Of a DNA stretch of 64,000 nt, positions 7,152-55,360 are shown piece by piece. Position numbers and translations under genes: made by a program. Position 1 is the first letter of the stretch. Each line of letters starts with the position of its first letter. A model generated the notes under the pieces. It worked only from the letters and a program-made list of their open reading frames with translations, was not told where the DNA came from and ran no database searches. The stretch is from Chlorobiota bacterium. GTDB lineage: Bacteria > Bacteroidota > Ignavibacteria > OLB7. The stretch covers positions 1,060-65,059 of the forward strand of contig JAGWAZ010000002.1 in assembly GCA_021296135.1 (NCBI GenBank), in the 5' to 3' direction.

Positions 7152-8825
7152 ATGAATGGTGAAACTGCCACGCGGTTGGTCCGTGCTCCAAGGGGAACCA
7201 CATTGACCTGCAAGAACTGGCAAATCGAGGCAGCCTATCGTATGATTCAGCACAACCTTGATCCCGAGGTTGCCGAAAAGCCTGATGAATTGATCGTCTA
7301 TGGAGGCTACGGGAAAGCAGCTCGAAACTGGGAAGCATTTGATGCGATTCTTGCGGCCCTCGAACGACTTGAGCCTGACGAGACTCTCCTCGTTCAATCT
7401 GGCAAACCGGTCGGGGTTGTTCCCACAGACTCTAATGCTCCTCGTGTTCTGATCGCTAACAGCAACCTTGTGCCCAAGTGGGCAACCTGGGAGGAGTTTC
7501 GGAAACTTGACGAAGCAGGGCTGATGATGTACGGACAGATGACCGCAGGGAGTTGGATCTATATCGGAACGCAGGGGATTTTGCAGGGGACATATGAGAC
7601 CTTTGCTGCCTGTGCAAAAGAACATTTTGGAAGTACCCTTGCGGGAAGGCTGGTAGTTACCGCTGGCCTTGGTGGGATGGGTGGAGCACAGCCGCTGGCT
7701 GTTGCTATGAATTCCGGTGCAGCTCTCTGCATCGAAGTTGATGAAAGCCGTATCGACAAACGGATTCATGACCGGTATTGTGACCGTAAAACCAGTGATC
7801 TCGATGAGGCTCTTGAGTGGCTGAATGAGGCGCGTGCAAACGGCAAGGGGCTTTCGGTTGGATTGCTCGGTAATGCTGCGGAGGTCTTGCCAGAGCTTGT
7901 TCGCAAAGGCATCACGCCAGACGTTGTGACCGATCAGACTTCAGCCCATGATCCCCTCCATGGATATTATCCGGCTGGCTTGACTAAAGAGGAAGGGGAC
8001 GCTTTGCGACAGAGTGATTCCGATCAATATTTGCGCAGGGCAGGAGAATCAATCCTTGCCCATGTTGAGGCGATGGTTGCGATGAAGGATAGTGGTGCCG
8101 TTGCCTTTGACTATGGGAACAACATTCGGGCTGAAGCTGAGAAGGCGGGTTTCACTCGCGCTTTTGAAATTCCGGGATTTGTTCCGGAGTATATCCGACC
8201 TCTCTTTTGTGATGGAAAGGGACCATTTCGTTGGGTTGCTCTTTCCGGCGATCCTGAGGATATCTATGCAACCGATCGTGCTATCATGGAGCTTTTTCCC
8301 CATGATGAACCACTTTATCGATGGTTAACGATGGCAGCCGAGCGGATTGCATGGCAGGGATTGCCGTCACGTATCTGCTGGTTGGGTTACGGAGATCGTG
8401 CCAAAGCCGGGCGACTCTTTAACGATATGGTAAAGGATGGTCGAGTCTCTGCACCGATTGTGATCGGTCGTGATCACCTCGATTGCGGCTCGGTCGCCAG
8501 TCCGAACCGTGAGACTGAGGGGATGAAGGATGGATCGGATGCTGTCAGCGATTGGCCAATGCTGAACTTTGCTCTTAACGCAATTGGGGGGGCTACCTGG
8601 GTCTCATTCCATCATGGTGGTGGAGTTGGAATCGGATACTCGCAACATGCTGGGATGGTTGTTGTTGCTGACGGAACTGACGAAGCGGCTGCTCGTCTTG
8701 AGCGCGTTCTTACCTACGACCCTGCAATGGGAATCTTCCGTCATGCCGATGCAGGATATGACAGGGCAATTGACAACGCACAGAAGTTTAAAGTGGACGT
8801 ACCAATGTTGAAGGGGAAAGAGTGA
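7152..8825 (+). CDS. hutU: Urocanate hydratase
   Basis: [58 protein letters not shown]. Confidence 0.98.
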
Positions 8826-9264: not shown

Positions 9265-10476
9265 ATGGTCAATGGCTATGACGCCAGGAGTTTATCGTTG
9301 ACATCATTGAATAAAACCGTCATTGCTCCGGGTCCGAAAGTCGGATCACGTTACAACGGAACAAGCAAGGTCCCGATGGCCAAACTGGTTGAGGATTACA
9401 TCCATGGTCGCATTGACATCAAAGGGGATTTTCGGGATTTTATCGGTACTCGAACAGACTATGTCACCTATAAGTTGGTCGCCGATCACGTCAAGTTCTT
9501 CCTGACGCGGTTTATCCCTGAAGTCACAATCCACTCGAAGAAACAAGATGAACGTATCGTCCAAGATCATTATGATCGAGGCAACGATTTCTTCAACTGG
9601 TTTCTTGGTCCGCGTATGGTCTATACCAGCGCCTTCTTCACCGACCTCAATCAGGATCTTGAAACTGCTCAGGATCAAAAGATGAAACTGGTGTGCGACA
9701 AGCTACAGTTAAAGAGGAGTGAGACCCTGCTCGATATCGGATGTGGTTGGGGAACGCTTGTTCTGTATGCTGCTCGAGAAAGGGACGCTGATGCTACGGG
9801 CATTACGATCGCTGAAGAAGGAGCAGCGTACGCGACAGAGCAGATCGCTGAGGCTGGATACAGTGATTCGGCCCGCATTCTTCGCATGGACTATCGCGAT
9901 ATCCCTCACAAGAAATACAACAAGATTTCCTGCCTCGAGATGGCCGAACATGTCGGAGTCAAGTACTTCAGCAGGTTCATGAGACAGATCTATTCGATGC
10001 TTGAGGATGACGGACTCTTCTACTTACAGATCGCAGGCCTGAAAGCAGGAGTACATATGGAAAGTCTCGTATGGGGTCTCTTCATGAACAAGTATATCTT
10101 CTCCGGCGCTGATGCAAGTATGCCTCTGAGTTTTGTTGTCAAGAATCTGGAGAAGGCTGGTTTTGAAATTCATTCGGTCGAAAATATCGGTATTCACTAC
10201 TCGATTACCATTGACCGTTGGTATGATAACTGGATGCGGAACAAGGAGGCTATTGAAAAAAAGTATGGTCAGTTCTGGTTCCGACTCTGGCAAGTCTTCC
10301 TCGGTTGGTCAGTTCATATTGCCGCTCAAGGTAACTCAACCTGCTTCCAGATTGTCTGCAACAAGAACCTTGAGACATATAACCGAAAACGTTTCGTCGG
10401 TGAGATCGGTATGGGTGAACGATTGAATGAGTCAAGTAACAATATCCCGACCGAAATGCCTGCTGCGGTGGAGTAG
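9265..10476 (+). CDS. SAM-dependent lipid methyltransferase of the Cfa superfamily, sphingolipid C9-methyltransferase-like
   Basis: HYDRGNDFF-WFLGPRMVYTS, LLDIGCGWG, CLEMAEHVG, LVWGLFMNKYIFSGADASMPL. ATG 9265 preferred over TTG 9184. Confidence 0.85.
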   Translation: MVNGYDARSLSLTSLNKTVIAPGPKVGSRYNGTSKVPMAKLVEDYIHGRIDIKGDFRDFIGTRTDYVTYKLVADHVKFFLTRFIPEVTIHSKKQDERIVQDHYDRGNDFFNWFLGPRMVYTSAFFTDLNQDLETAQDQKMKLVCDKLQLKRSETLLDIGCGWGTLVLYAARERDADATGITIAEEGAAYATEQIAEAGYSDSARILRMDYRDIPHKKYNKISCLEMAEHVGVKYFSRFMRQIYSMLEDDGLFYLQIAGLKAGVHMESLVWGLFMNKYIFSGADASMPLSFVVKNLEKAGFEIHSVENIGIHYSITIDRWYDNWMRNKEAIEKKYGQFWFRLWQVFLGWSVHIAAQGNSTCFQIVCNKNLETYNRKRFVGEIGMGERLNESSNNIPTEMPAAVE

Positions 10477-10645
10477 GAATCATTTCTGGTCGAGGGGTAA
10501 TTTCGCAGGATCACGGATGAACATTAAGTATAGAGGATAGCAAGGGCATTCTCCGGAGTGCTCTTGTTTTTCTGTGACATGCAGCAAGCTATGGCCGGAT
10601 ATCACGGTCCCATTTTGGTCGCAATTGAACTATCGAACTACACCT

Positions 10646-17686: not shown

Positions 17687-20600
17687 ATGCAACAGAAGAT
17701 ATATAGAGCTGCGAAGGTATTGGCAAAGCTTGGCGTTCTGATGATCGCTCTGCTTTCGTTCCTTGGTGCTTTTGCTGTTGCAATGACTCAATATTCACCT
17801 TTCAGGAAATGGGCAATAGATCAAGGACTTGATGCTGCCAACAAAGCCTTGGCCGGAAATCTCTCAGTCGAAGAGATTGAAGGAAATTTCCTGACCGGGT
17901 TAACAATCAAAAATGCCTACTTGAACGCAGCCGATACCCCCCTTGCCGTTATTCCTCGGATTTCGTTGCAGTATCATCTCATTCCATTCTTTGAAGCCAA
18001 GACCATCCAGGCCTCGGTTATCTTTCACAACCCTGAACTCTATTTGCATAGGGATCAGGATGGTATCTGGAATTTTACACAGATTGCGCAACCCCCTGAG
18101 GAAGAAGAGGATAAACCTCGCCAGCCATTGGAATGGATCTTTGATATTCAAAACCTTGAAATCAGAGATGGCGTCGTCGAGTTCAATGACGAGACAACTC
18201 TACCATTCAACTCTGAGAACAACCGATTGAACTTGCTGGGTTCGCGACTTTACCGTTTCAATCTTGCACTCGGCGGATGGATTTCTGAGACGGAGCAGCA
18301 GATCGATGTAGAGCATCTCTCATTCTTGATTGACGATGTAGATCTGAGCCTTGTCGAGCTGTCCGCGGGAATTGCTGTAGACGACAAAGGGCTTCACATA
18401 GATGGTCTTCATATCGAAACCGAAAGAAGTTACCTCGAGTTGAATCTCTCAATCGACTCCGTCGATATCTTTGACTCGACACTGGCTACATCGTGGAGAG
18501 GATATCCATTCAGTGTGAGGATGAGTGGCAAACGAGTCGATACCCGTGAACTGATCACTCTCCTGCCATCGCTTGGTTTCCTTGGTGGAGTTATCGGCGT
18601 TGACCTTGAGGCTTCGGGGGTCTTTTCCGATATCCTTGTTAATCGTGTTGATCTTGAACTGGAACGGTCCCGACTGACTGGAAAAGCTCGCTTACGAGAT
18701 ATTGATAACTCTGTTCGTTCTCGCATTGATGCTGAATTTACCGACTCACGTCTTTTCTACAGTGATGCCTCCGTTCACATTCCTGGCATTTCGATTCCTG
18801 ATCTGAGCTATCTCGCAGAAGTAGAGGTTGAGAAGTTGACCTACTCGGGAACCTCGCGGGATTTTGTTTCTCTCTTTGATCTTTCTTCTGCAGTTGGTCG
18901 AATCAGGGGTGGAGGAGGAATGAACTTTAGTGATTTTCCCGTCTGGAGAGTTGATGCTGTAGTTGAGGAAGTTAATCCCGGGCCACTTCTTGGATCGGAT
19001 GAATATGAAGGAAAGGTCTCAGCACGATTGGTTGCTGAAGGGCAAGGGTTTACGCCGGAGGCAATGTCGTCGCGGTTCCGGCTGATTGGTGGTTCCTCGC
19101 AAGTAGGGCCTCGGACTATCGAGCGACTATGGGTAGATGGTTCGTTCGGTAATGGCGGAATCCTGTCGCTCGATACAGCCATGATTGCGTGGGGAAATGA
19201 GACTCAGTCCTACATCCCGGAAATGATTGGGCTAGATCCCCTTGAACAGCTTCTTCAGGATCAGAGAATCCAACCAATGACCGGTAGCTTCGCGGAACGT
19301 CTTGTGTTCTCCGAAGCTGATGCGGCTGTCATCGATGGTCTTCCATCACTTCGCGCAAGCGGTTGGTATGATGTGAGGGAGTCTGGGCTTCCTAAATACA
19401 GGGGAGCGGTTGAGACGGACAGACTCAACCTGGCCGACATTACTCTTAACCCCGAGCATGAAACAGAACTCGGGCTGACGTTGGTTGTTGAAGGGATTGG
19501 ACTTGAACCCGATCTGATGGACGGAACCGCCCGGCTTCGTGTGACCGATGCAGTGCTTCCCAGCGGAGTCGCGCTTCGACCATTTGGTGTTGATGTCACT
19601 CTACATCGCAATGAAAATGAACGACATCTCGCGTTGAACTCTGATTTTCTTGATGCCCGGGTAGAGGGAATCTGGAGATTTGAGTCTCTTCTTCCGGCGC
19701 TTACCGGTGGATTCAAGAAGTTGGTTAACTATATCTCACGTAAAGGGACATATAGTTCCGATGAGTTCGATTTTATCCTCGCAGATGATTTTGAGATAGA
19801 GCCGATCCTTGTTGAGTATGAGTTTATGCCAAGAGACCTTTCACTACTCAAAGCATTTATTCAGGGAACGACAATTCAGATGGATGCATCATTAAAGGGA
19901 ACAATCACAGGAACCTCGCAGCTTCTGGGCATTACTGCGCGGGGTGAGATAAATGAGTTTAACTATGAGAATGGAGATCAGGATGTCAAGTTTGGGGGGA
20001 CTACTGTCGACGCAGAGATCTGGAACATCAGCTCCGGTTCAATGGATGATCTTCTCGATGCTGAAATTGCTCTGCGTAGTGACTCCCTGATATATGTGAA
20101 TGATCTGAGAATTGCTTTACCCCACCTTGATCTCTCTTTCAGGGATGGGTTGTTGACTGCGAATGGCGCAACCATGATTGATAATACATACTCGGTCGCT
20201 CTTGATGGGAAAATTGATGTGTTGGATGATAGAGGGTATGCAGTTGCAATGGATACCTTGATTGTCGGTTGGTCCCGTGGCTTGAAGTGGCGAAATATCG
20301 ATCCGGTAAGATTTGTTCTTGCAGATGAGAAGGTCGACATTGAATCGTTCCGTCTTGTTCGTGAGGGGGCGGAGCTCATTTCAATAACCGGAGAGTTTCT
20401 TGACTATAACCGATTTGATGAGCTGCGTGTATCAGTTACTGGCACATCGCTTGAAGCTCTTCAACCTTTTATTGTTGATCCTAAAACACTGGAGATGCTT
20501 GAAACGCTCTCCGGAAGCTTGCAAGACCTTGATGTAGTTGTGAATGGAACACTTGATGCTCCGAAAATCAAGGGACATCTGAATGTAGATGGACTAAAGT

Positions 20601-22426
20601 ATACTAACATACAGATAGGGGATCTGGAACTTGATATTGACTATCGGGATCAGAATCTTACTGGAAAGGTTCGTATCCTGCGTCCTCTTACAATCGATGC
20701 TCTTTCCAATGTCTCCCTGGCGACAGTGAAGATAGAGTCGTTCCCCATCGATCTGGCAATGGCCTCGCGAGATGAGCGGATTATTACCGGAAAACCTGTT
20801 CTGATTACGGCCCAGACCAAGGAATTGCCACTCGCAATTGTTGGACCGTTTACTCCAAGCCTTGTTATCCAAAGGGGGACTGCCAACCTGGACTTTACCC
20901 TGAAAGGCAGCTATCCAAGGCTGACCTATTCGGGTAATGGGAGAATCAATGATGGTATAATGACAGTGGAGACAACAAACATCTCCTACATAGCCAACGG
21001 GAAGTTTGAATTCCGTGAGAACAGAGTTGACATTACAGGTGTTGTTCTGAACAATCTTCCCAGCGATTATCCGAGGGGAGTGGCACGAGCAAATGGTAGC
21101 ATCCGTTTTGATGGATTTATCCCTGAACTGTTTGATGTTAACATCCGTACGGGAGATGAAGGTCTTCTTGTCCTGAGTGATGCAACACAGACTGTAAACG
21201 ATGCTTACTACGGTGACCTTGTGGTAGCAACCCAAGAGAATATCCTTCACTTTGGTGGGTCGTATGCTGAACCAACCTTGACCGGCGAAATCGTGGTTCT
21301 CAACAGCAGCCTGAAGTATCCCTATCGGGAAACGTCTGCTGCATTCGTTGATCACGTTGAGTTCACTGAATATGATGAATGGGTATCTCAAAGAGAAAAA
21401 CAGTACGGACCAATTCTCTCTGATGAGCAACTCAAAGAGAATGAAATAAAGGCTCCCGATGAATTGAAAGGAGCAGATGCAGATTCGATCCAGCCGGATG
21501 GACTTGCAAAGACAGTCGACCAGATGCAACGGCAGTCAGACGCCGGAATATCGAAACCGATCCCACGAGGAACCTTTGCCGACAGACTACGGACAGACCT
21601 TCGTATCTCGCTCGAGAGTGGAGCAACGATCATTGTTGAGATCGGACCGCTCCAGGAACTCCGCCTAAATCTTGTCAACGATGGATTGCCCCTTGATTTC
21701 AAGATGAAAGGACGTGATATGTCGTTGCGAGGAACAGTTCGTCTTGTTGAGGGATCGAAGTTTATCTACTTAAAGACATTCGATGCGCGAGGAACCGTCA
21801 GTTTTGAGGAGGATATAGAGAATCCCTCGTTTGATATCAGCGGTGTATGCCAAGGGCGTCACACTAGTACCAACGAATCGTTTACTGTCACTGCTCGATT
21901 GACCGGGACGCGGGAGAAACCTGAGCTCGACTTTTCCTATTCGATTGGAGGTGTTACCGCGGTTGATGATAAAGAGCGTGTGCTTGCTAATGCAAGTGCG
22001 CTTCTGTTGACCGGACGGAGAATTTCAGAGGTTGAAGGGGGAGCAATTGGAGTTCTTTTTGAGAATGCGCTCCAGGATTTTTCAAGCGCTGCTGTAAGCG
22101 TTCTGTTAGATGACATTTTCAGTGATTTTGGCGTTGATATTAACCTCGGCAACTCAGTTGATCCGGCTGAAGCAGAAGTCAACGTTGTTCGCCAGCTTAG
22201 CGAAATTCTTTTCAGATATGATGCCAAAGTCAGATCACCGGAAAGCGGTACCATTTCAATAGAAATCCCGATCTCAGTTCTGATTGATCCCATCAAATTG
22301 AACAATCTTGTCCTTGAGCTTCAGCGTGAAGTGCTTGATAAGTTTGAAAGTGGAGGGACAGGTCCCACCACTACCGAGGGAGAAGACATCTTTCGGCTTC
22401 GTATCGGTCTGAAGGAGACATGGTAA
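17687..22426 (+). CDS. tamB: TamB/AsmA-like envelope-spanning protein
   Basis: 1579 aa; N-terminal TM anchor; GNFLTGLTI, WNF and repeated beta-taco-like motifs; C-terminal LTGTREKPEL (DUF490-like). Confidence 0.75.
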   Translation: MQQKIYRAAKVLAKLGVLMIALLSFLGAFAVAMTQYSPFRKWAIDQGLDAANKALAGNLSVEEIEGNFLTGLTIKNAYLNAADTPLAVIPRISLQYHLIPFFEAKTIQASVIFHNPELYLHRDQDGIWNFTQIAQPPEEEEDKPRQPLEWIFDIQNLEIRDGVVEFNDETTLPFNSENNRLNLLGSRLYRFNLALGGWISETEQQIDVEHLSFLIDDVDLSLVELSAGIAVDDKGLHIDGLHIETERSYLELNLSIDSVDIFDSTLATSWRGYPFSVRMSGKRVDTRELITLLPSLGFLGGVIGVDLEASGVFSDILVNRVDLELERSRLTGKARLRDIDNSVRSRIDAEFTDSRLFYSDASVHIPGISIPDLSYLAEVEVEKLTYSGTSRDFVSLFDLSSAVGRIRGGGGMNFSDFPVWRVDAVVEEVNPGPLLGSDEYEGKVSARLVAEGQGFTPEAMSSRFRLIGGSSQVGPRTIERLWVDGSFGNGGILSLDTAMIAWGNETQSYIPEMIGLDPLEQLLQDQRIQPMTGSFAERLVFSEADAAVIDGLPSLRASGWYDVRESGLPKYRGAVETDRLNLADITLNPEHETELGLTLVVEGIGLEPDLMDGTARLRVTDAVLPSGVALRPFGVDVTLHRNENERHLALNSDFLDARVEGIWRFESLLPALTGGFKKLVNYISRKGTYSSDEFDFILADDFEIEPILVEYEFMPRDLSLLKAFIQGTTIQMDASLKGTITGTSQLLGITARGEINEFNYENGDQDVKFGGTTVDAEIWNISSGSMDDLLDAEIALRSDSLIYVNDLRIALPHLDLSFRDGLLTANGATMIDNTYSVALDGKIDVLDDRGYAVAMDTLIVGWSRGLKWRNIDPVRFVLADEKVDIESFRLVREGAELISITGEFLDYNRFDELRVSVTGTSLEALQPFIVDPKTLEMLETLSGSLQDLDVVVNGTLDAPKIKGHLNVDGLKYTNIQIGDLELDIDYRDQNLTGKVRILRPLTIDALSNVSLATVKIESFPIDLAMASRDERIITGKPVLITAQTKELPLAIVGPFTPSLVIQRGTANLDFTLKGSYPRLTYSGNGRINDGIMTVETTNISYIANGKFEFRENRVDITGVVLNNLPSDYPRGVARANGSIRFDGFIPELFDVNIRTGDEGLLVLSDATQTVNDAYYGDLVVATQENILHFGGSYAEPTLTGEIVVLNSSLKYPYRETSAAFVDHVEFTEYDEWVSQREKQYGPILSDEQLKENEIKAPDELKGADADSIQPDGLAKTVDQMQRQSDAGISKPIPRGTFADRLRTDLRISLESGATIIVEIGPLQELRLNLVNDGLPLDFKMKGRDMSLRGTVRLVEGSKFIYLKTFDARGTVSFEEDIENPSFDISGVCQGRHTSTNESFTVTARLTGTREKPELDFSYSIGGVTAVDDKERVLANASALLLTGRRISEVEGGAIGVLFENALQDFSSAAVSVLLDDIFSDFGVDINLGNSVDPAEAEVNVVRQLSEILFRYDAKVRSPESGTISIEIPISVLIDPIKLNNLVLELQREVLDKFESGGTGPTTTEGEDIFRLRIGLKETW

Positions 22427-33484: not shown

Positions 33485-35773
33485 ATGACGATTATTCAAT
33501 CAACGTTCTCATACGTAGCAGTATTTCTTCTGACCTTGAGCTTTATCTGGGCACCCGACCTTTCAGGGCAGGTTATTATAGAATCATGGGAGGTCTTCAG
33601 CGCACTTGACAGATCCACTGATGTTGCCGTAGATGGAGAGGGAAAAGTTTGGGTTGGATCGACCGGAGGAGCATACCAATTTGATCCAGTTACCAGAGAG
33701 GCCACTGTCTATCGGACGAATAATGGATTGCTCAGATTGAACGTGACGGCTGTTGGTGTTGACAGAGAGAGCGATGATGTCTATTTCGGTGGTGATAACG
33801 GCGCAATTTCAATCCTGCGCCAAGGGGGATGGTGGACCTATGTTACCGACATCACGCGACGTTCTCAGTCGCAACGAGCTATTAACGGCTTTGCTTTTGC
33901 TAACGGGCTTGCTTACATCCTTACGGAGTTTGGTGTTGCCGTCTTCGACCCATCTGACAGCGTAATCCGGGAGTCATGGACCCGGCTTGGGTCAATACAT
34001 CCGAACACTTCTGTAAACGATCTGGTTTTCTACAATGATTCGGTCTGGTTGGCAACGCCGTTCGGTGTTGCCGTAGCCCAGTCTACCGGCAAATACCTTG
34101 CCGATCCTTCGAATTGGACTGTTTACGATTCAGTCTCCCTCTGTAGTAGTCTGAAAGCTCTCTCTTTAGCCGTTGTTGACGGTTCTTTACTTATTGGTAC
34201 TGCCGATGGCGGTTGTGAATATATTGATGGAGTATTTACTAAACGAGGCGATCTTGGTGGAAGTATCAGGTTCGGTACTAACGGCGACCAGGTTGTTGCG
34301 GGAAATGATTATAGGCTTTACAGACGGGAGCAGAACGGACTGTTTCGTGAGGTAGGAGAACTGTCCGATCGTCTTACTGACGTCGTTGCTCTGCCGGACG
34401 GATCACCTCTCGGTTCTCTTAAACGTACCGGGGTTGCGTTTCTCTCATCAGATTCGGTTGAACTCTTTGCACCAAACGGGCCTTCCTCTAACAGATTCGT
34501 CGATCTAACGTTTGGAGCTGATGGTTCTCTTTGGGGAGCCACTTTTGATGATGGTGTTGTTCGATTGAATGAAGGAGAATGGTTTAACTATGATGCTGCC
34601 AACACGGTGGGACTTTCTACGAACTCCGCAAGGCAAATCGAGGATGATGACTTCGGCCGAGTCTGGGTCTCAGCTTATGGAGATGGAATGTACATTTTCC
34701 AACCTGAGAATGATGGTTCGTCAAAGGTGGATGTGCAGCACTATGATGAGACGAACTCACCATTGAGGGGGATAAACACAAATGCTGCCTATGTGATTTG
34801 TTCCGACATCTATGCAGACGGGTTTGGTACAACCTGGTTCATCAATTGGGATAACACTTCGGGAATTCGTGGTGCGGTTCTTCTGGCAAGCGTTTACGAT
34901 CCTAAGACCGGTGTCGATAATTTTCACCTTTTTCCAGCCTCTTCGACCTTCCCGGAACTGACTCGTGCGTACGCACGCCTGTCGATCGACTTTAACGGCA
35001 CAATCTGGCTTGCTTCCGAGAATCAGAGCGGACTCCTCTACTTCATTCCTGGCCAAACGCTCAACGATCAGGGTGAGTGGAGGCGCATAAGGACTGCCGA
35101 TGGCTTGATCTCAAACGACCAGAATGCTCTTCTGGTCGATCCGGATGGGGAAGTATGGATTGGAACGCCAAAGGGATTGACTGTCCTGGTGAATCCTGGG
35201 GCGGTTCGGAACAATGGATCAAACGCGGCGATCTTCAGGGAAATTCGTTCTCTTAAGGATGTTGTTATCCGCGATATTGCCGTTGACGCTTTGAATAGAA
35301 AGTGGGTAGGTACCGATAATGGTCTTTTTGTTCTTTCAAGCGATGGTACAGAACTGTTGGAAACTTATACGGAGTCAAATTCTTCTCTTGTTAAGAATGA
35401 GGTACTGGCCGTTTTGCCTAACAATAAGACAGGGGAAATATACATTGGTACCGGATCGGGGTTGAACAAAATCCAAACCGAGGCGATTGAATCGTCGTCC
35501 GACCCCGATCAGATTCAAGTTTCACCACAACCTTTTGATCCTACTCGTGATCAATCCCTGCGGATCACAGGACTTCCCTTGAACAGCAGAGTGAAAATTC
35601 TGAAGCTTGATGGTTCCCTTATCACAGAGTTTCGTGCACCAGGTGGTGATGTCGGGTTCTGGACCGGAAGAGATGCCCGCGGTGAGTTGGTTGCGAGTGG
35701 TGTCTATATTGTCGCGGCAGAATCAGCCCTTGGTGAGACAGTTATAGGGAAAATTGCAGTTGTTCGACAATAA
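33485..35773 (+). CDS. porZ: PorZ-like beta-propeller protein with T9SS/FlgD-like C-terminal domain
   Basis: Signal peptide, repeated propeller blades, IAVDALNRKWVGT, YIGTGSGL; C-terminal PQPF...VKI..LDGSLI...W.GRD..G..VASGVY...GKIAVVR. Confidence 0.75.
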   Translation: MTIIQSTFSYVAVFLLTLSFIWAPDLSGQVIIESWEVFSALDRSTDVAVDGEGKVWVGSTGGAYQFDPVTREATVYRTNNGLLRLNVTAVGVDRESDDVYFGGDNGAISILRQGGWWTYVTDITRRSQSQRAINGFAFANGLAYILTEFGVAVFDPSDSVIRESWTRLGSIHPNTSVNDLVFYNDSVWLATPFGVAVAQSTGKYLADPSNWTVYDSVSLCSSLKALSLAVVDGSLLIGTADGGCEYIDGVFTKRGDLGGSIRFGTNGDQVVAGNDYRLYRREQNGLFREVGELSDRLTDVVALPDGSPLGSLKRTGVAFLSSDSVELFAPNGPSSNRFVDLTFGADGSLWGATFDDGVVRLNEGEWFNYDAANTVGLSTNSARQIEDDDFGRVWVSAYGDGMYIFQPENDGSSKVDVQHYDETNSPLRGINTNAAYVICSDIYADGFGTTWFINWDNTSGIRGAVLLASVYDPKTGVDNFHLFPASSTFPELTRAYARLSIDFNGTIWLASENQSGLLYFIPGQTLNDQGEWRRIRTADGLISNDQNALLVDPDGEVWIGTPKGLTVLVNPGAVRNNGSNAAIFREIRSLKDVVIRDIAVDALNRKWVGTDNGLFVLSSDGTELLETYTESNSSLVKNEVLAVLPNNKTGEIYIGTGSGLNKIQTEAIESSSDPDQIQVSPQPFDPTRDQSLRITGLPLNSRVKILKLDGSLITEFRAPGGDVGFWTGRDARGELVASGVYIVAAESALGETVIGKIAVVRQ

Positions 35774-43610: not shown

Positions 43611-43830
43611 TAAGAACTCAAGAGTGGAGGATCTTAATCTGAGAGGGAGGCTGAATGGTATTGTCTCCACACCGTTGCAGGGCTATATTGGGATTAATCC
43701 GTGTAAGTCTCAGGAATAATTACGCATGATACATATCAAGTTGCTATTCTCAGGACCGGAAATCCTTCCGTCAAATCAAGCTAACTCTTCACGTAGAAAA
43801 ACACACCGCTTCAATCGGAGTGGTGGTTTT

Positions 43831-45483
43831 ATGTGGTACGTTTTCCTCTTCGCATCTTTTTTTTATGTCACCAAGCTTTTCGCACAGGTGGAAGCACCGG
43901 TTAGTGGAGAAGGTCCGCGTTGGTTTGGAACTACCGGCAAATCGTTGCCATACGATACCTCGGCCCAGGAAGCGTTGGCCGAACGTGCGCTCGCAACTGC
44001 CGGTTTGCTCGAAGGAGCTATTGACCCGGAACAATATCATGTGGGGCCAAATGATATTCTGACGGTTACAATCTGGACTTCCAGGACTCAGCAGTATGAT
44101 ATTCTCGTGACACCTGATGCCAAGGTTTTGATACAGACTGTGGGGGAGGTGAATTTAAGGGATAAAACGTTAGCAGAAGCAGAGAAGGAGATCAAAAAGG
44201 CGGTTGCTCGTGTCTATAACGTTGATGCTTCAGTCTCTTTGAGGAAGATGAGAGAGTTCAAAGTGAACGTTACCGGTGCCGTTCGGCTTCCCGGTGCTGT
44301 GACTGCAACGCCTGCGACGCGGGTTTCGGAAGTGGTTGGTCTTGCTGGCGGGCCTTTACAACGGGGAAACCAGCGTGACATACTCATCTATCGACGAAAG
44401 CCTGAAGGAACCCGTGAGGTAATTCGTGTTGATCTACTTCCGTTCTTTGCTTTTGCTGATCTCTCCAGCAATCAGTTTGTGTGTGATGGCGATGTTATCA
44501 AGGTAGGTATTGTCGATCCGGACAATGTTGTGCAGATCTATGGTGAAGTTGCCATGGAGGGAGAGTATTCCTTCCAACCGACTGATTCGATCTCAACGAT
44601 CATCAACGCATCGTTTGGGTTCACGGCTAATGCCCGTCGCGATTCAATCCTGGTAATAAGTGTCACAGAGGCAGGGGAGATAAGCAGTGAGACGTGGCAT
44701 AGTTATCTGAATGATGGAATACTCACAAATGATCGTGCTCTCCAGAACGGTGACAGGATATTTGTTTGGGGCAAACCCAGGTTTCGTCAGCGGGATCAGG
44801 TCGTTGTGGCTGGAGAAGTGCAGCAGCCGGGGGTCTATCCGATTGTTCCTGGCTCGACAACCTTGCGGGAGTTGATTTCCATGTCGGGAGGATTTACTCA
44901 AGAGGCTTCCCTGATCGATGCAGTACTTATTCGCCGTGAAGCCATCGGACAACCCGATGAGTATTTCCGGTATGTTAGCGCGATTGAGTCTACGAATCGA
45001 ACATTAGATGAGCAAGCATACTTCCGGACGAAGTTGTTGGAGCTAGCCAAGCAGGGTGAGATGGCAGTAGATTTTCGTGCTCTCATGAACGGAGATGAAT
45101 CGCAGAATATCCCGTTGATGAGCAATGACTCACTTTACGTGCCGGTGCTTCTCGGCCATATTCGTGTTTCGGGCAAAGTGAAGAATCCGGGACACTTTCT
45201 TTACGAGTCGGGTTCAGAGTATGAGGCATATGTTGATAGGGCTGGAGGATATGGTTGGAAGGCGGATAAAGGTGAGACGCAGGTTATCAAGGGGAGATCA
45301 GGGGATCGATTCCCGGCTAAAGATGAAGAGAACTATATCCTTGAACCAGGAGATGCAATTTTTGTTCCTGAAGAGCAACCTTCAAATTTCTGGGAAAGTT
45401 TTACGATTGCGTTAACGATTGCGACGCAAACGACTGCGATAGTTGCTCTTGTCATAAGTCTGACCGGAAGCAACAATCCGTAG
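43831..45483 (+). CDS. Polysaccharide export protein with multiple SLBB domains (Wza/KpsD-like)
   Basis: YHVGPNDILTV export motif; repeated V.VTGAV..PG, GEVQQPGVY, SGKVKNPG SLBB repeats. ATG 43831 gives a clean signal peptide (alternative 43726). Confidence 0.9.
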   Translation: MWYVFLFASFFYVTKLFAQVEAPVSGEGPRWFGTTGKSLPYDTSAQEALAERALATAGLLEGAIDPEQYHVGPNDILTVTIWTSRTQQYDILVTPDAKVLIQTVGEVNLRDKTLAEAEKEIKKAVARVYNVDASVSLRKMREFKVNVTGAVRLPGAVTATPATRVSEVVGLAGGPLQRGNQRDILIYRRKPEGTREVIRVDLLPFFAFADLSSNQFVCDGDVIKVGIVDPDNVVQIYGEVAMEGEYSFQPTDSISTIINASFGFTANARRDSILVISVTEAGEISSETWHSYLNDGILTNDRALQNGDRIFVWGKPRFRQRDQVVVAGEVQQPGVYPIVPGSTTLRELISMSGGFTQEASLIDAVLIRREAIGQPDEYFRYVSAIESTNRTLDEQAYFRTKLLELAKQGEMAVDFRALMNGDESQNIPLMSNDSLYVPVLLGHIRVSGKVKNPGHFLYESGSEYEAYVDRAGGYGWKADKGETQVIKGRSGDRFPAKDEENYILEPGDAIFVPEEQPSNFWESFTIALTIATQTTAIVALVISLTGSNNP

Positions 45484-45527
45484 AGAAACTATCCTACCGA
45501 GACAGGATTGATCCGATAGAAGCATAA

Positions 45528-46790
45528 ATGTGTATGGATAATCAACGCTTGAATGAGGGGGAGAGTACCTTGTTCCCTGAGACCCCTCAACAAAGTTCAG
45601 CACGACTTTACGATTACCTTGTGGTCGTTTGGCGGCACAAACGTTTCTTTGTCATCTTCACGATAGTTGGTCTTCTTCTTGCAATAGCCTATTCTCTGAC
45701 CATCCCCTACACGTATGTTGCCACTGCAACGTTAATGCCGCCTGAGCGGGAATCGGGGTCACGGTCAAATTTTACATCGCTCATACAATCGGGTGGTATA
45801 GACCTGTTCGGTCTTGGAGAAACTTCTTCAGGGCGCATCTTTATAGAAATGCTTCAGAGTCGCACACTTGCCGACAGCTTGATAGAGCGATTGGATCTGA
45901 TGGAGCGACTTGGACTCCCGGAAAGCCGTATTGTTGCGATAGATGAGTTGAAGGGGAAAATCGAGGTTGAAGAAACGAAGTCAGGCGTCATTATGATCGG
46001 GTTCAGCATAGGCACGCCCCGGTTCCCGAGTGATGAAGATATTACCAAAGCGAAGACTCTTTCGGCAGAGATTGTGAACGAGGCCATCGAAGTCCTTGAT
46101 ATTCTGAACAGGGAGAAGATGGTCACTCAAGCGAAGAGCTCTCGTGAGTTCCTTGGTCGTATGGTAGAGTTGAAGCAAGCCGAGCTTGACTCAGCCCGAC
46201 TGAGGATGGCTACGTTTCAGAAAGAAAACCGGGCCTTTGCTGTCGATAAACAATTAGAGCTTGTGGTTAAGTCGCTCGCTGAAACTCAGTACAGGATTCA
46301 GACGCTTGAGCTTGAGATTGCTTCAGTGGAGCAGGAATTCCGGCCTGACGCACAGGTCCTTGCCAATATGAGGGGAGAGCTTGCGGAGCTACGACAACAG
46401 CAAGCAGCAATGTCTACAAGAGATGTCCTGGGTATGAATCTGGACAATGCTCCCGATATTGCTATGGAGTATTTGAAGCGGCGACTTGATCTTGAGGTGG
46501 CAACGCAAGTATACTCCTATCTCGTGAGCCAGTACAATTCCGAACAGGTGCAGGAGGCACGTGACTTGCCAACAATTTCGGTGCTCGATCCGGCTGTTCC
46601 GCCTGAGTATCGTTCCGCTCCTCGCCGTACGTTCCTGGTAATGATCTCATTTTTCATCATAGTCATAATTGGCGTTGTGCTGATCTTTTTGCTCGAATGG
46701 TTTGGCAAAGATGTTCGCAGGTTCAGTTCCGATTACTTCCCTCGATGGGTTAAACGAATCCTGCGTCTTCCTTCTACTTCCGGAGGTTGA
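45528..46790 (+). CDS. Wzz/GumC-like polysaccharide co-polymerase without kinase domain
   Basis: Two TM segments flanking a coiled coil; Y.ATATLMPP, LQSRTL, VLDPAVPPE..SAP.R. Confidence 0.88.
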   Translation: MCMDNQRLNEGESTLFPETPQQSSARLYDYLVVVWRHKRFFVIFTIVGLLLAIAYSLTIPYTYVATATLMPPERESGSRSNFTSLIQSGGIDLFGLGETSSGRIFIEMLQSRTLADSLIERLDLMERLGLPESRIVAIDELKGKIEVEETKSGVIMIGFSIGTPRFPSDEDITKAKTLSAEIVNEAIEVLDILNREKMVTQAKSSREFLGRMVELKQAELDSARLRMATFQKENRAFAVDKQLELVVKSLAETQYRIQTLELEIASVEQEFRPDAQVLANMRGELAELRQQQAAMSTRDVLGMNLDNAPDIAMEYLKRRLDLEVATQVYSYLVSQYNSEQVQEARDLPTISVLDPAVPPEYRSAPRRTFLVMISFFIIVIIGVVLIFLLEWFGKDVRRFSSDYFPRWVKRILRLPSTSGG

Positions 46791-46796
46791 GTTCGT

Positions 46797-47996
46797 ATGA
46801 ATTCGGGGACTACAACTTCGGGCGATAGCTTGGAACAGATCAGGGTACTTGCTATTGACAAAACGGCTGTACTGGCGCATGTTCGTGATCGGTGGGACAG
46901 ACTTTCGGCACACCAGGAGATCGATCTTGCTCTACTTTCACCCGATTCATGGATAGAAAACTTTCGCACCTACCGATTTACATCTTCAGATGCCTATCAT
47001 TTCAAGGCCGTCGTGGGGAAGGTTATCGGGATTGGCCGTGAGTTGAAAGCGATCTATCGTTCGGGATTGTTCAAAGCGTTTCGTCAGACTCGTCCTGAAG
47101 TTGTGCTGATGTTCGAGGAGTCCTTCTCCTTCTTTGCTCTGCAAACACTTATTGCCCGGAGGCTATTCGCTCCGAATGCCAGGTTGGTCTTCTACAGCAA
47201 CAACGTTACTTCATATAAAATTCCTGGCTACAGGCTTTCTAGACTCTACCGTGCGATAGCCAGGATTGTCACTCCACGTTGTGATGTAGGATTATGTGTG
47301 AACGATGCCGCCGAGAGAGTCCTCCGGGAAGCGGGCTATGGAATCGAAATCCGCACGCTCTTCTATGGGATTGATGAACGCCGGTTTGCTCCTGTCGAAC
47401 GGATAAAAGCACGGAATGAGGTAGGCCTTTCCCCCGATCAAAGAGTCTTGCTCTATGCGGGTCGTTTGATTGAATTGAAGGGAGTACAGGATTTGATCGC
47501 AGCCTTTGAGGGCCTGTACAAGAGACGGCCAGACGATAAATTAAAGCTTCTGATCGTCGGTGATGGGCCTTATAGAGAAGCGTTGCTTCAACAGGCAAAT
47601 GCTCTTGATGCAAAAGAAAGAATTGAGTTCCGTCAGGTAGTTCCGATCGAGTCGATGCCGACCCTGATAGGCGCCTGCGACATGTTGGTTCTTCCCTCAC
47701 GGAAAGAATTCAACGAACAGTTCGGGCGTGTGAATGCTGAAACGATGCTGTGTGGAACAACTATAGTAGCATCGACAAGTGGAGCGATCCCGAAAGTGTT
47801 AGGCGAAAACGGTTTTGTTTTCGAGGCCGGTAATGTTGAGGAATTGACTGAGAAGATTATCTATATACTTGAGCATCCTGGTGAAGCAGAGGACCGAAGA
47901 ACCAAGGGGCGAGCTTATGCTTTGAAGCACTATTCTACTCAGGCGGCTATTAGGAATCTGCTTCAACTTATTAAAGATATGACCGGAGAACGATAA
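46797..47996 (+). CDS. Glycosyltransferase family 4 (GT-B)
   Basis: YAGRLIELKGVQDLI, LLIVGDGP, LVLPS...EQFGRVNAE. Confidence 0.92.
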   Translation: MNSGTTTSGDSLEQIRVLAIDKTAVLAHVRDRWDRLSAHQEIDLALLSPDSWIENFRTYRFTSSDAYHFKAVVGKVIGIGRELKAIYRSGLFKAFRQTRPEVVLMFEESFSFFALQTLIARRLFAPNARLVFYSNNVTSYKIPGYRLSRLYRAIARIVTPRCDVGLCVNDAAERVLREAGYGIEIRTLFYGIDERRFAPVERIKARNEVGLSPDQRVLLYAGRLIELKGVQDLIAAFEGLYKRRPDDKLKLLIVGDGPYREALLQQANALDAKERIEFRQVVPIESMPTLIGACDMLVLPSRKEFNEQFGRVNAETMLCGTTIVASTSGAIPKVLGENGFVFEAGNVEELTEKIIYILEHPGEAEDRRTKGRAYALKHYSTQAAIRNLLQLIKDMTGER

Positions 47997-47999
47997 GCG

Positions 48000-49379
48000 T
48001 TGCATACCCTGTTAGCTGATAGAACGCGCCGTGAAACGGCAATGACACAGGATCGCTTCCTTCGCGACCCTATAGGCATGCTCATGCTTGTTCTGAGTGC
48101 GTTTATTCTGGGGTATGGTGGTGTCGGGTGGATAGAAACTCCTTTTCGAATCAAGTTCTTCGAGGCATGGGCCGGGGCAATTTTCTCCGGGATTGAGGTC
48201 ATCATTTTGCTATTACCCTGTCTTGCCATGATTCGCCGCATTGTCAGTGATGACTTCTACATATCACCATCCCGGTTGACCATGCCTGTTGTACTACTTG
48301 CTCTGTACATGGCGATCATCCCTTTCATCAGGATGACTTTTGCCGAGGGAGGATTTCGTATCCCGATGGAGGCAAACTTTGTTCCCTTCTTTATCATTAT
48401 GTTTTTTACCTGGCGTCTGATCTTTCATCCATCAGATGTGCGATTGATGGTCTGGATGTTGATCGTTTGTATCGGCTTCCGATGTGTTGAAGGGGTGGCA
48501 ATATGGTTCAGCAACGACATAATCTGGGGGCTCCTGACAGGTTGGAGAGATGGATTACTTCTGTCGCTCGGTCTGTGTGGTGCGTTGTTTGCCTACGTTA
48601 TCAGACCGGAAGGTGAAGAATGGTACGCAAAGATTCGCAAGGCTTTGTATATGATTTTTCCCCTGGTGATTTTTGTCTTTATCGCTTCGATGCGGCGTTC
48701 CTATATGCTCGGCCTTGTGCTCACAATTCCAATCCTGGCATTCTATCTCAAGCCCGCGGAGAGGAAGCGTCTTTTCAGGATTTTGCTTCTGGTTGCACCG
48801 TTGTTCATTGCTGCCATCTTTATAGTGGGAGCAGATCGTTTTACCAATCGAATAAGTGGGATTACTTCTCCAGGAGAAGAAAGCTCTGCAGCATGGAGGG
48901 TAATTGAGTACTACAACGTCTATCGGATGGCCCTCGAACGTCCGCTTTTTGGTTGGCCCTGGGGGTTTGCGTTCATTAATTATACCGGGATTGAGTTAAC
49001 CTGGCTGAATATCCTGATCCCTCATAATGTCTATCTGTATGTTGTCATGCGTAGTGGACTTGTTGGCCTTGTCTTTTTTATCTGGTTGATCTGGAGATAT
49101 GTACGACTTAGTCTCGATACCGTCAGAAATACTCCTTCACCAGGATACAGGTTCCTTGCTCTCTGGATGGCGAGTGCAACATTCCTTGTTGTCACTTCCG
49201 GTATAACAAACCCTGTCTTTGCCAGTAAATTGATAATTCTCATCCCCTTTTTGATGACTCTTACGAGTTTTCTCCCAGGCGCTATCAGATCAAACAACAA
49301 AGGGGAAAAAAAATCCCTTGCATACTATCACGATTCGGCTGATCTTTTCGTCAAAGAAAGGAACCATTCATCATTTTGA
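48000..49379 (+). CDS. O-antigen ligase/Wzy_C-family membrane protein
   Basis: Polytopic; SMRRS, WR..EY, RPLFGW.WG and the conserved HN (PHNVYL) followed by GLVGL. Start may be ATG 48042. Confidence 0.85.
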   Translation: MHTLLADRTRRETAMTQDRFLRDPIGMLMLVLSAFILGYGGVGWIETPFRIKFFEAWAGAIFSGIEVIILLLPCLAMIRRIVSDDFYISPSRLTMPVVLLALYMAIIPFIRMTFAEGGFRIPMEANFVPFFIIMFFTWRLIFHPSDVRLMVWMLIVCIGFRCVEGVAIWFSNDIIWGLLTGWRDGLLLSLGLCGALFAYVIRPEGEEWYAKIRKALYMIFPLVIFVFIASMRRSYMLGLVLTIPILAFYLKPAERKRLFRILLLVAPLFIAAIFIVGADRFTNRISGITSPGEESSAAWRVIEYYNVYRMALERPLFGWPWGFAFINYTGIELTWLNILIPHNVYLYVVMRSGLVGLVFFIWLIWRYVRLSLDTVRNTPSPGYRFLALWMASATFLVVTSGITNPVFASKLIILIPFLMTLTSFLPGAIRSNNKGEKKSLAYYHDSADLFVKERNHSSF

Positions 49380-55300: not shown

Positions 55301-55360
55301 AAAGTGAGCGCCGCAGGCAAAACAACAGAGGTGATTGAAAAACTTGTGGTACTGAGATGA
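49376..55360 (+). CDS. PorU-like C25 (gingipain-family) cysteine peptidase with two ILEI-like inserts, CARDB-like domains and a T9SS-type CTD
   Basis: Signal peptide; TGIY...DTNAY.LTW; ADLIIITH, IYDEF, LFGDA, IGRLP; FNGHG (His986) and WSC (Cys1016); LLGDP; C-terminal NWPNPF...WDG.D.DG..LANGVYFY...KLVVLR. Confidence 0.85.
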   Translation: MRYNLSMHVRSLLSITALLLLTAFRSTYAQGDQAFPHPQAEVRIITSDVSSVILEVNQLKPVLDSEGFLVHNARRYLFREEFNALPELHFRLAVPTNAGSLRVSVQKNGENVEGLGSQGVVNGLNSQQREEIEILGESRLRSLRTVFIVWRPFRLQGRSLIWSPEATIKLEWDATGDMEKGEGMIAEEIPVIEEELRKSVLNYDQVRSLPGFSTSTQRTLLSRADSDWGLGEEALILLVPETGIYTLSIKELVAAGLPSGVNINDLRLRNREEFVEILVYDNGIKNVLDAEDVLEFLGVRNPGEPGIYFNEITDTNAYVLTWSGGEGNPPVIVQSKQNQYDNVIESYDSTIHIEKEEFWFGGLTLPKYLDGDVRTLHTTERVPHERFYWRKSRLTIQNPLTFDCSPVYGPGLRTTMDVRVAGITYVDVAKGSVSPPQEMTFILNGITIGTASIRDTADTTVSFSFPSNYLINGTNKLIVRLTPHDSIRNEVIIDYLELEGRWYAMAENHSLVVPATPALHTGLSIVGLPGPDVGLPGPDVRSIVSGETYRADSVERGYLFRLSSRAGTALRGFPGFYAKVGEEQAVADAPGRVGVMVVEVEPNSEGGRILRSEHFKTGESFDGCDAFDKAADFLDEVEDSNIVLAGLAFATGCKEKSEAFIQAFKGLGSRVVSEKDLFAGAWVFAARKGDPNSAVEKFVADDQGITANLFIPDPNGNRWRAVAPISGGNGEEVTISTLLEPRIRHHNGDQLIETTNQADLIIITHSAFASEAERLASHRRSHDGYSVVVVDIERIYDEFNDGVKDPVAIRRFLQYADTNWAEPKPAFVTLFGDASWDSQQRMLGSIMIDYIPSFGVPSTDQLYVVAFGDTTLTPRQFIGRLPATSSADAKAIVDKLIEYDSQPPARWNKRFVFATGGLKVRERDRLRDDALILAGNVTGSPLQGEAIVISRSGQTDSDLSLPSTVDGDTVRREVNRGAVSLDFNGHGATTTLDLNFGYPEDFDNEGRYFIFSTWSCQTGLYSDPGKTLRNERFVTIPGKGAIASIGATSYSFTNVDFKIREGIYSRFADPDGNVRLGPLFALAKHDMFALYNFGSLYEQFGPRSRTHMLMYNLLGDPSMRIPIRRTPELAIPGESAVILNEQNKEPELGDTLLLVRAALWNYGRPLTGIPFDSGVVVRATLIDPLGEQTSVELKISRLVRFDSIHATLPIGTTAGEYVVKLEADPEGVVEETWLKDNILTLSFLLRGSQPLPLEPLPYGVVEAYDDITIRLLNPASGPGAKFTLDTVPTFNSRALISSDQHGKVELQELTTTWEFSVPSQLRDATQFWWKAISTSGDPDLAERFPLVESFTVERGNPDVVEVSGVYQMATTHLVDLVNTPQGVGPGTRAVPIYLYAVGQTRVDSIIPSLELDGKRITVRIGSIDYRKGNVTGLSVIVLPPNDVVPLIDTVFNFDKVRIADFKDLVDNHIEPGQRVLLGTSGISFFFGADGPKEIRSVLKMLGSRVADDTLTFLDYEGSYALIGGKGVPPDQVKEAWLPARPLRREGKIPPFPVELFDTITAIPRAGVWKSPTFGPATAFRQATFSLDPVSSESLDVVVLGVHRDGIRDTLITQIISSDLKSIDLRSIDALEYPRVEVLAGFTADTLQRLQSVSVELDPSPELAIVPSTVRLSPDSILQGDPVAFEATVMNLTSFQSATNVQFQVDELGELGGIIDSGIIDEIAPLNSAQVKLAINTNRFRSNRVYRLLVNSDDRPGEPYTYNNRRGPLPLKVVTDGIPPGFALYADDNRLIDGDFVSPRPTLEARVFDNSVLALDSIQAVTMVLDNQWITVKEGGILESFVKGDYRASFRYTPPEPLAEGPHDLLVFIKDASGNGDTSEIITFFVEPDVSLRTVANWPNPFAKKTTFTFMITGEAPPESGEIAIFTPSGRKIKTIYLGQRDLSAGDLSIGHNTVEWDGLDADGDRLANGVYFYRLKVSAAGKTTEVIEKLVVLR
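50950..50995 (+). repeat. Perfect in-frame 21-bp tandem duplication (VGLPGPD x2)
   Basis: TGTCGGTTTGCCAGGACCTGA occurs twice, followed by TGTC. Confidence 0.95.

Follow-up and report, generated by a model that had tools for sequence, protein, structure and literature searches.

Introduction

Fungal glucosylceramide carries a 9-methyl branch that serves as a fungal hallmark and is targeted both by antifungal defensins and in plant immune recognition. In the fungal pathway the delta-8 desaturase Sld8 acts before the C9-methyltransferase Smt1 (PMC3887071, legend to Figure 2), and in passages of PMC2444003 the 9-methyl-4,8-diene is treated as typically fungal, the only bacterial mention there being of cyclopropane-bearing bases in Sphingomonas. 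In this study we describe a bacterial gene whose product is related to the fungal sphingolipid C9-methyltransferases (C9-MT; EC 2.1.1.317; MTS1, SMT1, MT1 and MT2). The gene occupies positions 9265 to 10476 of a 64,000-nucleotide stretch of DNA from a Chlorobiota bacterium (the window). An earlier interpretation of the letters alone, here called the sequence-only reading, had taken the product for a bacterial homologue of the fungal enzyme and had proposed that the bacterium may make 9-methyl-branched sphingoid bases.

The homology itself is not new, because some databases already name bacterial relatives C9-MT. Among the papers listed in our literature searches we saw none on a bacterial C9-MT-like member; those listed for the C9-methyltransferase were fungal or general. 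What appears to be new is the dependence of the methyltransferase (MT) on a membrane desaturase encoded elsewhere in the same genome.

A C9-MT-like methyltransferase encoded in the window

The ORF list and its translation place the MT gene on the plus strand from an ATG at 9265 to a stop codon ending at 10476, encoding a protein of 403 amino acids (P0002), hereafter the query. An alternative TTG start at 9184, 81 bases upstream, would add 27 residues. Use of this codon is unlikely because the record P0003 has the identical length of 403 amino acids and because same-genus orthologues align from query residues 2-3. The features of the gene to which we refer below are as follows.

9265..10476, plus strand: coding sequence of the C9-MT-like S-adenosylmethionine (SAM) methyltransferase, including the stop codon; identified by the open reading frame, the CMAS match PF02353, identity to the fungal C9-MT core and the tree
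9367..9531, plus strand: N-terminal subdomain, residues 35-89 (KVPM...IDIKGD...FFLTRFIPEV), which precedes the Pfam CMAS domain; identified in alignment A1
9532..10353, plus strand: CMAS / class I SAM-methyltransferase domain, residues 90-363; identified by Pfam PF02353
9727..9753, plus strand: glycine-rich motif LLDIGCGWG, residues 155-163; identified in alignment A1

The Pfam CMAS profile PF02353 matched residues 90-363 over its full length (profile positions 1-273 of 273) with an E value of 1.6e-66. In an alignment of 12 sequences (A1) conservation extended from about residue 35 to residue 375. The motif blocks KVPMAKLVEDYIHGRIDIKGD, FFLTRFIPEVTIHSKKQDERIVQDHYDRGNDFFNWFLGPRMVYTS, CLEMAEHVG, LVWGLFMNKYIFSGADASMPL, IGIHYSITIDRWYDNW and QGNSTCFQIVCNKN were common to the query and six named fungal proteins, to which the query was 47-51% identical over its full length; every motif that the sequence-only reading had listed was present in the 403-residue translation and conserved with these six proteins. 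Within LLDIGCGWG, which we take to be the SAM-binding site from general knowledge of class I methyltransferases, the columns D157, G159, C160, G161, W162 and G163 were invariant in A1. The N-terminal subdomain was conserved in the fungal and the long bacterial forms, and alignments with cyclopropane synthases (Cfa) in the PDB began at query residues 37-39.

No membrane helix precedes the N-terminal subdomain in the query. A hydropathy scan (19-residue window, Kyte-Doolittle value of at least 1.6) found no hydrophobic segment in the query or in three other short bacterial forms, and one to three N-terminal segments in four long bacterial and five fungal forms. The sequence-only reading had noted that the fungal membrane segment is missing, and the scan bears this out. 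The MT of one myxobacterial genome (G312) was considered as a long anchored form and was ruled out, since it is nearest to the short forms and has a non-hydrophobic N-terminal extension.

To reach longer proteins, residues 100-365 of the query (the core) were searched against proteins of more than 467 amino acids. The core aligned over 98-100% of its length with named fungal sphingolipid C9-methyltransferases, at 55-59% identity. The fungal matches came from chytrids, Mucoromycota, Zoopagomycota, Ascomycota and Basidiomycota, several of them bearing the C9-MT name, and interspersed among them were bacterial proteins of about 485-495 amino acids from Polyangiaceae and other metagenome-assembled genomes (MAGs). 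A search among proteins of similar length gave 5827 matches, the best 120 of which were 62-100% identical to the query and about 380-410 amino acids long. The sources of these 120 were MAGs of Bacteroidetes, Kapaibacterium and Ignavibacteria, and Archangiaceae; JGI or UniRef gives eight of them the name sphingolipid C9-methyltransferase, and several sources label close relatives 'cyclopropane fatty-acyl-phospholipid synthase-like'.

Similarity to Cfa was much lower. Cyclopropane synthases in the PDB scored only 131-179 bits and mycolic-acid methyltransferases only 90-97 bits against the query, and Cfa-like proteins in related genomes reached at most 177 bits at about 31-36% identity. The query also failed the NCBIfam Cfa models, with scores of 202.4, 200.5 and 199.4 bits against cut-offs of 600, 650 and 400, as well as a fourth Cfa/mycolic model (127 bits against a cut-off of 390). 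The family to which the query belongs is large, with at least 550 matching stretches in species-representative genomes; by record title these include Archangium gephyra, A. violaceum, A. minus, Cystobacter fuscus, Hyalangium versicolor and Vitiosangium. Among 1.84 billion cluster representatives, 9857 relatives were found at E values of 0.001 or below and 702 at 1e-30 or below. Archangium minus (G001) carries two C9-MT-like paralogues (L098 and L102, 66% and 71% identical to the query) as well as a short mycolic-type CMAS gene (L107).

Phylogenetic placement

A quick IQ-TREE analysis (LG+C20+F+G4) was carried out on 80 rows. The ingroup consisted of the query, 17 named fungal proteins, four long and 11 short bacterial forms, and 21 near-full-length representatives scoring above the Cfa band; the other rows were 23 Cfa-band representatives, E. 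coli Cfa and two myxobacterial mycolic-type paralogues. In this tree the C9-MT-like and Cfa-like rows were split with a Shimodaira-Hasegawa-like approximate likelihood ratio (SH-aLRT) support of 99. For a more careful IQ-TREE analysis we cut the set to 60 rows, dropping eight that were flagged as long branches and twelve that were near-duplicates or surplus outgroups, and kept 401 columns, each filled in at least 60% of rows. UfaM, the tuberculostearic-acid enzymes and the plant cyclopropane synthases lie outside the sampling of both trees.

In the careful tree the Cfa-like outgroup, including E. coli Cfa, was separated from a C9-MT-like superclade with a support of 100/100. The query fell in a short, anchor-less bacterial clade of Kapabacteria-like and Archangiaceae sequences (100/99) and not within the fungal clade (100/99). 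All of the long forms, namely the fungi, the long bacterial proteins and a clade in which a MAST-4 stramenopile is the one named member, grouped together (88/94), and the query's short subclade was sister to these membrane-anchored forms, fungi included (86/86 for short and long forms together). Two metagenomic representatives were basal to both (97/89). The splits between C9-MT-like and Cfa-like sequences in the two trees run against a nesting of the query in bacterial Cfa clades, the outcome that the sequence-only reading had named as counting against it. Its claims of kinship to the fungal enzymes and of a bacterial lineage related to them agree with the superclade and with the query's position in a large bacterial subclade of it. 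Taken with the alignments and the hydropathy scan, the trees show that the query belongs to the sphingolipid-C9-methyltransferase branch of the CMAS (cyclopropane / mycolic-acid synthase) superfamily, as a predicted soluble form without an anchor.

In the Cfa-rooted tree the eukaryotic sequences lay inside a bacterial and metagenomic grade, a hint that the eukaryotic enzyme arose in bacteria; several branches of this grade are unlabelled and its supports are moderate.

Active-site positions

The bicarbonate ligands of E. coli Cfa are C139, E239, H266, I268 and Y317 (PMC3132707). Alignment with E. coli Cfa gave the following equivalent positions in the query.

9628..9630, plus strand: S122, at the position of C139 (bicarbonate site)
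9946..9948, plus strand: E228, at the position of E239; conserved in all rows
10027..10035, plus strand: Q255-I256-A257, at the positions of H266-T-I268
10198..10200, plus strand: Y312, at the position of Y317; conserved

Thus the query differs from Cfa at three of the five positions. It shared the pattern S/E/Q/A/Y with all eight other C9-MT-like rows examined (four fungal and four bacterial), whereas all five Cfa-like rows had C/E/H/I/Y. Active cotton cyclopropane synthases likewise carry the H-to-Q and C-to-S changes at this site (PMC3132707). From these comparisons the S/E/Q/A/Y pattern is a mark of the C9-MT-like clade, as judged by sequence, that does not fix the product.

A desaturase gene accompanies the methyltransferase

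The source assembly (2.86 Mb in 132 contigs, 99.8% complete) contains MT as its sole strong CMAS gene, the runner-up scoring 34 bits. It also contains two FA_desaturase genes. One, which we call the C75-type desaturase (G000:C75:393-1361), encodes 322 amino acids with the histidine boxes HNHNH, HNMNHH and HTVHH; the other lies on contig C82. Both carry PF00487 only, and no delta-8 desaturase fused to cytochrome b5 was found in the genome.

We determined the distribution of these genes in 251 genomes of the class, counting as an MT orthologue any match of at least 465 bits. MT was sharply bimodal, with 43 genomes at or above this score and 46 others containing only Cfa-like matches of at most 177 bits. 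The C75-type desaturase was present in 70 of the 251 genomes, distributed over seven families that included all six families holding MT, and it accompanied MT in 41 of the 43 MT-positive genomes. The two exceptions were 95% complete (in 510 contigs) and 74% complete. MT was thus found in only two of 181 desaturase-negative genomes, and the desaturase occurred alone in 29.

The same nesting was seen within families. In f16 both MT-positive genomes were among the six of 17 with the desaturase, in f19 all four were among nine of 13, and the single MT-positive genomes of f4 and f17 were both desaturase-positive. Desaturase-negative genomes of f1 and f6 were also MT-negative, save the two exceptions. 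The C82 desaturase served as a control: its close orthologues were almost confined to f1 and were absent from all 29 genomes of f6, 24 of which have MT.

A second sample comprised 151 genomes of the order around Archangium minus (the Myxococcales-order sample), with 24 MT-positive and 48 desaturase-positive genomes. The desaturase was found in 23 of the 24 MT-positive genomes compared with 25 of the 127 MT-negative ones, and in all five further MT-positive genomes with other labels. The two genes adjoin in two cases, with MT first and both on the same strand: in G256, where they make up a two-gene unit, with a 144-bp gap, that is flanked by nadC and a convergent gene, and at one of 80 MT loci examined (L059, from an Ignavibacteria MAG). 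Because the distribution of MT is nested in that of the desaturase in two phyla, MT looks like an optional add-on to the C75-type desaturase. The order of desaturase and then MT mirrors the fungal pathway, and the co-occurrence of the two genes suggests a bacterial desaturate-then-methylate lipid pathway.

Genes for long-chain bases

The sequence-only reading had called for a search of the genome for serine palmitoyltransferase (Spt) and a sphingolipid delta-8 desaturase. The second of these was missing in its cytochrome b5-fused form, as described above, and the first yielded a candidate. Among eight PF00155 matches, one on contig C31 is clearly a glycine C-acetyltransferase (TIGR01822, 703 bits). 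The Spt candidate, which lies outside the window, is a single minus-strand frame of 795 codons on contig C73 (G000:C73:32702-35089, equivalent to L013:10004-12388). Its N-terminal 400 residues matched the Sphingobacterium SPT 3a2b best (378 bits); KBL/BioF reached about 245-264 bits and a cysteate acyltransferase 216 bits. Of the NCBIfam models, serine palmitoyltransferase NF047600 scored highest, at 477 bits, which is under its cut-off of 640 bits. The C-terminal half, of about 395 amino acids, is a GNAT-type acyltransferase domain that might be ceramide-synthase-like, in which case the protein would be an Spt-ceramide-synthase fusion. In the class sample, long frames of this Spt-GNAT type (about 800-950 amino acids) were seen in f1, in f6 and in a single genome of f18; the other families had a stand-alone gene of about 400 amino acids.

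From these matches, a route to long-chain bases is likely present in the source genome. Two other probes said little about further genes of the fungal pathway. The glucosylceramide-synthase probe PF13506 had four weak matches in the genome and is not specific, because 12 of 14 control genomes match it, and PF08557 was uninformative, with no match in the genome or in any of the 14 controls.

The C73-type Spt was present in 40 of the 43 MT-positive genomes of the class, and the three exceptions were 74-88% complete. In the Myxococcales-order sample, in which a canonical Spt-like gene was called at 479 bits or more on NF047600, one MT-positive genome had a partial Spt-like gene and eight had no match at an E value of 1e-100 or below. 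Seven of these eight carry a megasynthase of about 2260 amino acids with the domain order KS-AT-KR-DH-...-oxoamine synthase (AOS), for example the 2258-residue protein at L167:4257-11030 on the plus strand (equivalent to G276:C18). Complete loci adjoin a reductase of the 3-beta-hydroxysteroid dehydrogenase / epimerase type and an acyl-AMP ligase. This type of megasynthase was found in 43 of the 151 genomes, chiefly those lacking a canonical Spt-like gene. With either gene accepted, a canonical Spt-like or polyketide synthase (PKS)-AOS gene was present in 23 of 24 MT-positive and 84 of 127 MT-negative genomes of this sample; the five further MT-positive genomes all had an Spt-like gene. The KS-AT-KR-DH-AOS megasynthase resembles a polyketide route to sphingoid-like bases (compare PMC12134224).

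Proposed pathway and alternative explanations

We propose that MT would transfer the methyl carbon of SAM onto a carbon-carbon double bond in a membrane lipid chain, as expected from the chemistry of the CMAS family. The distribution of the two genes suggests that this double bond would be made by the C75-type membrane desaturase, with MT as an optional second step. In the least certain step, the chain would be a long-chain base, part of ceramide-type lipids that the bacterium itself makes starting with the Spt-GNAT fusion on C73, and MT would then yield an unsaturated sphingoid base with a methyl branch. We give this reading, the C75-type desaturase followed by MT on a long-chain base, a little less than an even chance. 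The sequence comparisons that speak for it are the high identity to enzymes that act on ceramide and the long-chain-base route in nearly every MT-positive genome. A broader form of it, in which Kapabacteria-like bacteria and many Myxococcota would use a desaturase/MT module to branch an unsaturated sphingoid base, giving a structure otherwise taken as a sign of fungi and invertebrates, and the eukaryotic C9-MTs would descend from a bacterial lineage, is put forward more tentatively.

Several observations weigh against a sphingoid base as the substrate. Orthologues of the C73-type Spt domain (63-94% identity) occur in 242 of the 251 genomes of the class, MT-positive or MT-negative, so the presence of Spt does not discriminate. 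In the Myxococcales-order sample canonical Spt was only mildly enriched (14 of 24 MT-positive compared with 52 of 127 MT-negative genomes), and one MT-positive genome (G279) showed neither Spt nor PKS-AOS. No Spt, GNAT or other sphingolipid gene was found in the MT flanks at 80 loci (1.23 Mb), and clustering of flank ORFs from these loci and the window found no family common to more than 11 of the 81. Similarly, no flank family was common to more than four of 21 desaturase loci (20 plus the genome's own). Because no flank family is widely common, operon context is uninformative beyond the two MT-desaturase adjacencies. The desaturase link is itself imperfect, in that G312, an MT-positive genome of 12.5 Mb, has no desaturase match at an E value of 1e-20 or below, and the co-occurrence counts overstate the evidence because related genomes are not independent. 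The C75-type desaturase has no cytochrome b5 and no characterised match among NCBIfam, PDB sequences and the ESM Atlas, and the fungal-type N-terminal membrane anchor is missing from the query. MT and Cfa-like genes were nearly exclusive in the class, with a Cfa-like match in one of 43 MT-positive genomes (G118) compared with 46 of 208 MT-negative ones; to judge from this pattern, MT could fill the acyl-chain-modifying role of Cfa. The S/Q signature is no proof of a methyl-olefin product, since the active cotton cyclopropane synthases share both residues. Lastly, experimental work on any bacterial member was not found in the literature searched.

Some of these observations would be explained if the desaturase and MT acted on a fatty acyl chain, either of a glycerophospholipid or the N-acyl chain of a ceramide. 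The sphingolipid name would then reflect ancestry only, and MT would yield a fatty acid with a mid-chain methyl branch, methylene group or cyclopropane ring. We regard this as a serious competitor that nevertheless falls clearly short of even. The query is soluble and has a Cfa-like N-terminal subdomain, as does the phospholipid-acting Cfa. The near-exclusion of Cfa-like genes fits such a role, MT is tied much more closely to the desaturase (41 of 43 and 23 of 24) than to Spt, and relatives of the desaturase are named only 'fatty acid desaturase' or, by JGI, 'beta-carotene hydroxylase'. Bacteria-rich sponges are known for mid-chain methyl-branched fatty acids, and MT DNA is present in sequencing runs labelled sponge metagenome. 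The S/Q signature is found in plant cyclopropane fatty-acid synthases as well (PMC3132707). On the other hand, the core is 55-59% identical to ceramide-acting enzymes as compared with about 31-36% to acyl-chain cyclopropane synthases, and the long-chain-base route is present in 23 of 24 Myxococcales-order and 40 of 43 class MT-positive genomes. In addition, iso-branched and monounsaturated chains, not mid-chain methyl-branched ones, dominate the published fatty-acid profiles of Archangium and Cystobacter.

An ordinary cyclopropane fatty-acyl-phospholipid synthase, acting on cis-unsaturated FabA/FabB chains independently of the desaturase and resembling the fungal enzymes through shared ancestry, would account for the full-length Pfam CMAS match, for the Cfa-like names given to close relatives by several sources, and for MT being the only strong CMAS gene of its genome. 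We consider it very improbable: the query lies outside the Cfa-like clade (100/100), scores far under every NCBIfam Cfa cut-off and differs at three of the five bicarbonate-site positions, and nesting of MT within the desaturase distribution in two phyla is not expected of a desaturase-independent enzyme. Other olefinic lipids, for example long-chain alkenes, amino alcohols of polyketide origin or chains of the isoprenoid or carotenoid-like kind, are unlikely substrates, although somewhat less so. Here the partner might be a hydroxylase or ketolase, both of which occur in the FA_desaturase family PF00487, and the JGI name 'beta-carotene hydroxylase' on some partner relatives points the same way, as do the eight Myxococcales-order MT-positive genomes without canonical Spt, seven of which have the megasynthase. 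However, the NCBIfam CrtR model scored only 17.8 bits on the C75-type desaturase against a cut-off of 475, the only characterised members of the MT clade act on ceramide, and a CMAS enzyme needs a double bond that a hydroxylase would not supply. Moreover, because a PKS-AOS product would itself be a sphingoid-like base, this explanation merges with that of a sphingoid-base substrate. Overall, the interpretation offered by the sequence-only reading is partly supported.

Genomic neighbourhood and source of the DNA

MT lies among genes for urocanase (hutU, 7152-8825), a DUF255 thioredoxin-domain protein and thymidylate kinase. The gene downstream of MT is convergent, and a candidate terminator follows the MT stop codon.

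10539..10568, plus strand: terminator-like hairpin with a 13-pair stem and a T-rich tail, 63 bases after the stop codon; a consensus match only

The pattern scan that gave this hairpin found six terminator-like sites where 1.6 were expected from shuffled sequences. MT looks monocistronic because of the convergent gene and the hairpin. No lipid genes were found elsewhere in the 64-kb window, the remainder of which consists of envelope and housekeeping genes.

Elsewhere in the window, on the plus strand, are genes for a 1579-residue TamB/DUF748 protein (17687-22426), a PorZ-like beta-propeller protein (33485-35773) and a 1994-residue protein with a peptidase C25 (gingipain-type) domain (49376-55360). 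The last of these lies directly 3' of a cluster for the export and polymerization of polysaccharide, at 43726-49379, which encodes Poly_export/SLBB, Wzz, a GT1 glycosyltransferase and Wzy_C. The TamB/DUF748 and PorZ-like proteins, together with a Por_Secre_tail protein on contig C73, suggest that the bacterium has a type IX secretion system and an envelope of the Bacteroidota type.

Between 98 and 100% of the words sampled from the MT gene were present in nine sequencing runs from five studies, labelled as sponge metagenome or with a coded organism; two of the nine are possibly the source of this DNA, and no RNA run was among those listed. From the run labels, the bacterium is probably sponge-associated.

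Implications

The widespread bacterial sister family would make a bacterial 9-methyl branch directly testable in cultured myxobacteria. The C75-type desaturase provides a concrete and previously unlinked partner gene, and with it a candidate pathway for an uncharacterised pair of gene families in two phyla; the finding also bears on the origin of the eukaryotic C9-MT. If the module does act on sphingoid bases, those with a methyl branch would lose their value as fungal markers in samples from the environment, sponges or hosts. If the substrate is instead an acyl chain, the family may be where mid-chain branched fatty acids, in use as bacterial biomarkers, come from. In both cases a large unstudied family would gain a function.

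Comparison with known systems

As judged from sequence and gene content, the query has the fold, the clade and the motifs of C9-MT. Two features of the family are missing, namely a membrane anchor and, as partner, a delta-8 desaturase fused to cytochrome b5. We therefore treat it as a bacterial variant related to the C9-MT family rather than a proven member, and its function as putative. With the fungal enzymes it shares the CMAS fold, the conserved blocks up to the C-terminal QG..TC.QI...KN, the S/E/Q/A/Y residues and a presence tied to a desaturase, which is Sld8 in the fungal case. Unlike them, it has no N-terminal membrane helices and belongs to a separate bacterial subclade outside the fungal clade, and its partner is a 322-residue FA_desaturase without cytochrome b5 rather than a protein of the fungal delta-8 type.

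The long anchored bacterial forms of about 485-495 amino acids (for example P0168, P0130 and P0163) belong to the query's superclade and have its motifs and residue signature. They differ from it in having one to three N-terminal hydrophobic segments and in grouping with fungal and protist-like sequences, at 47% identity to the query.

Rhodobacter UfaM and the mycobacterial tuberculostearic-acid enzymes are CMAS-family proteins whose products bear a methyl-branched olefin or a methylene group instead of a ring. This is the chemistry that we propose for the query, a likeness by description to enzymes that lie outside our trees. Cfa, as represented by the enzymes of E. coli (6bqc), Lactobacillus (5z9o) and Aquifex (7qos), resembles the query in its Pfam family, its two-part architecture, its solubility, its active-site E and Y, and its SAM-dependent attack on a lipid double bond. 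It differs in belonging to a separate clade (100/100) and in having C139, H266 and I268 where the query has S, Q and A.

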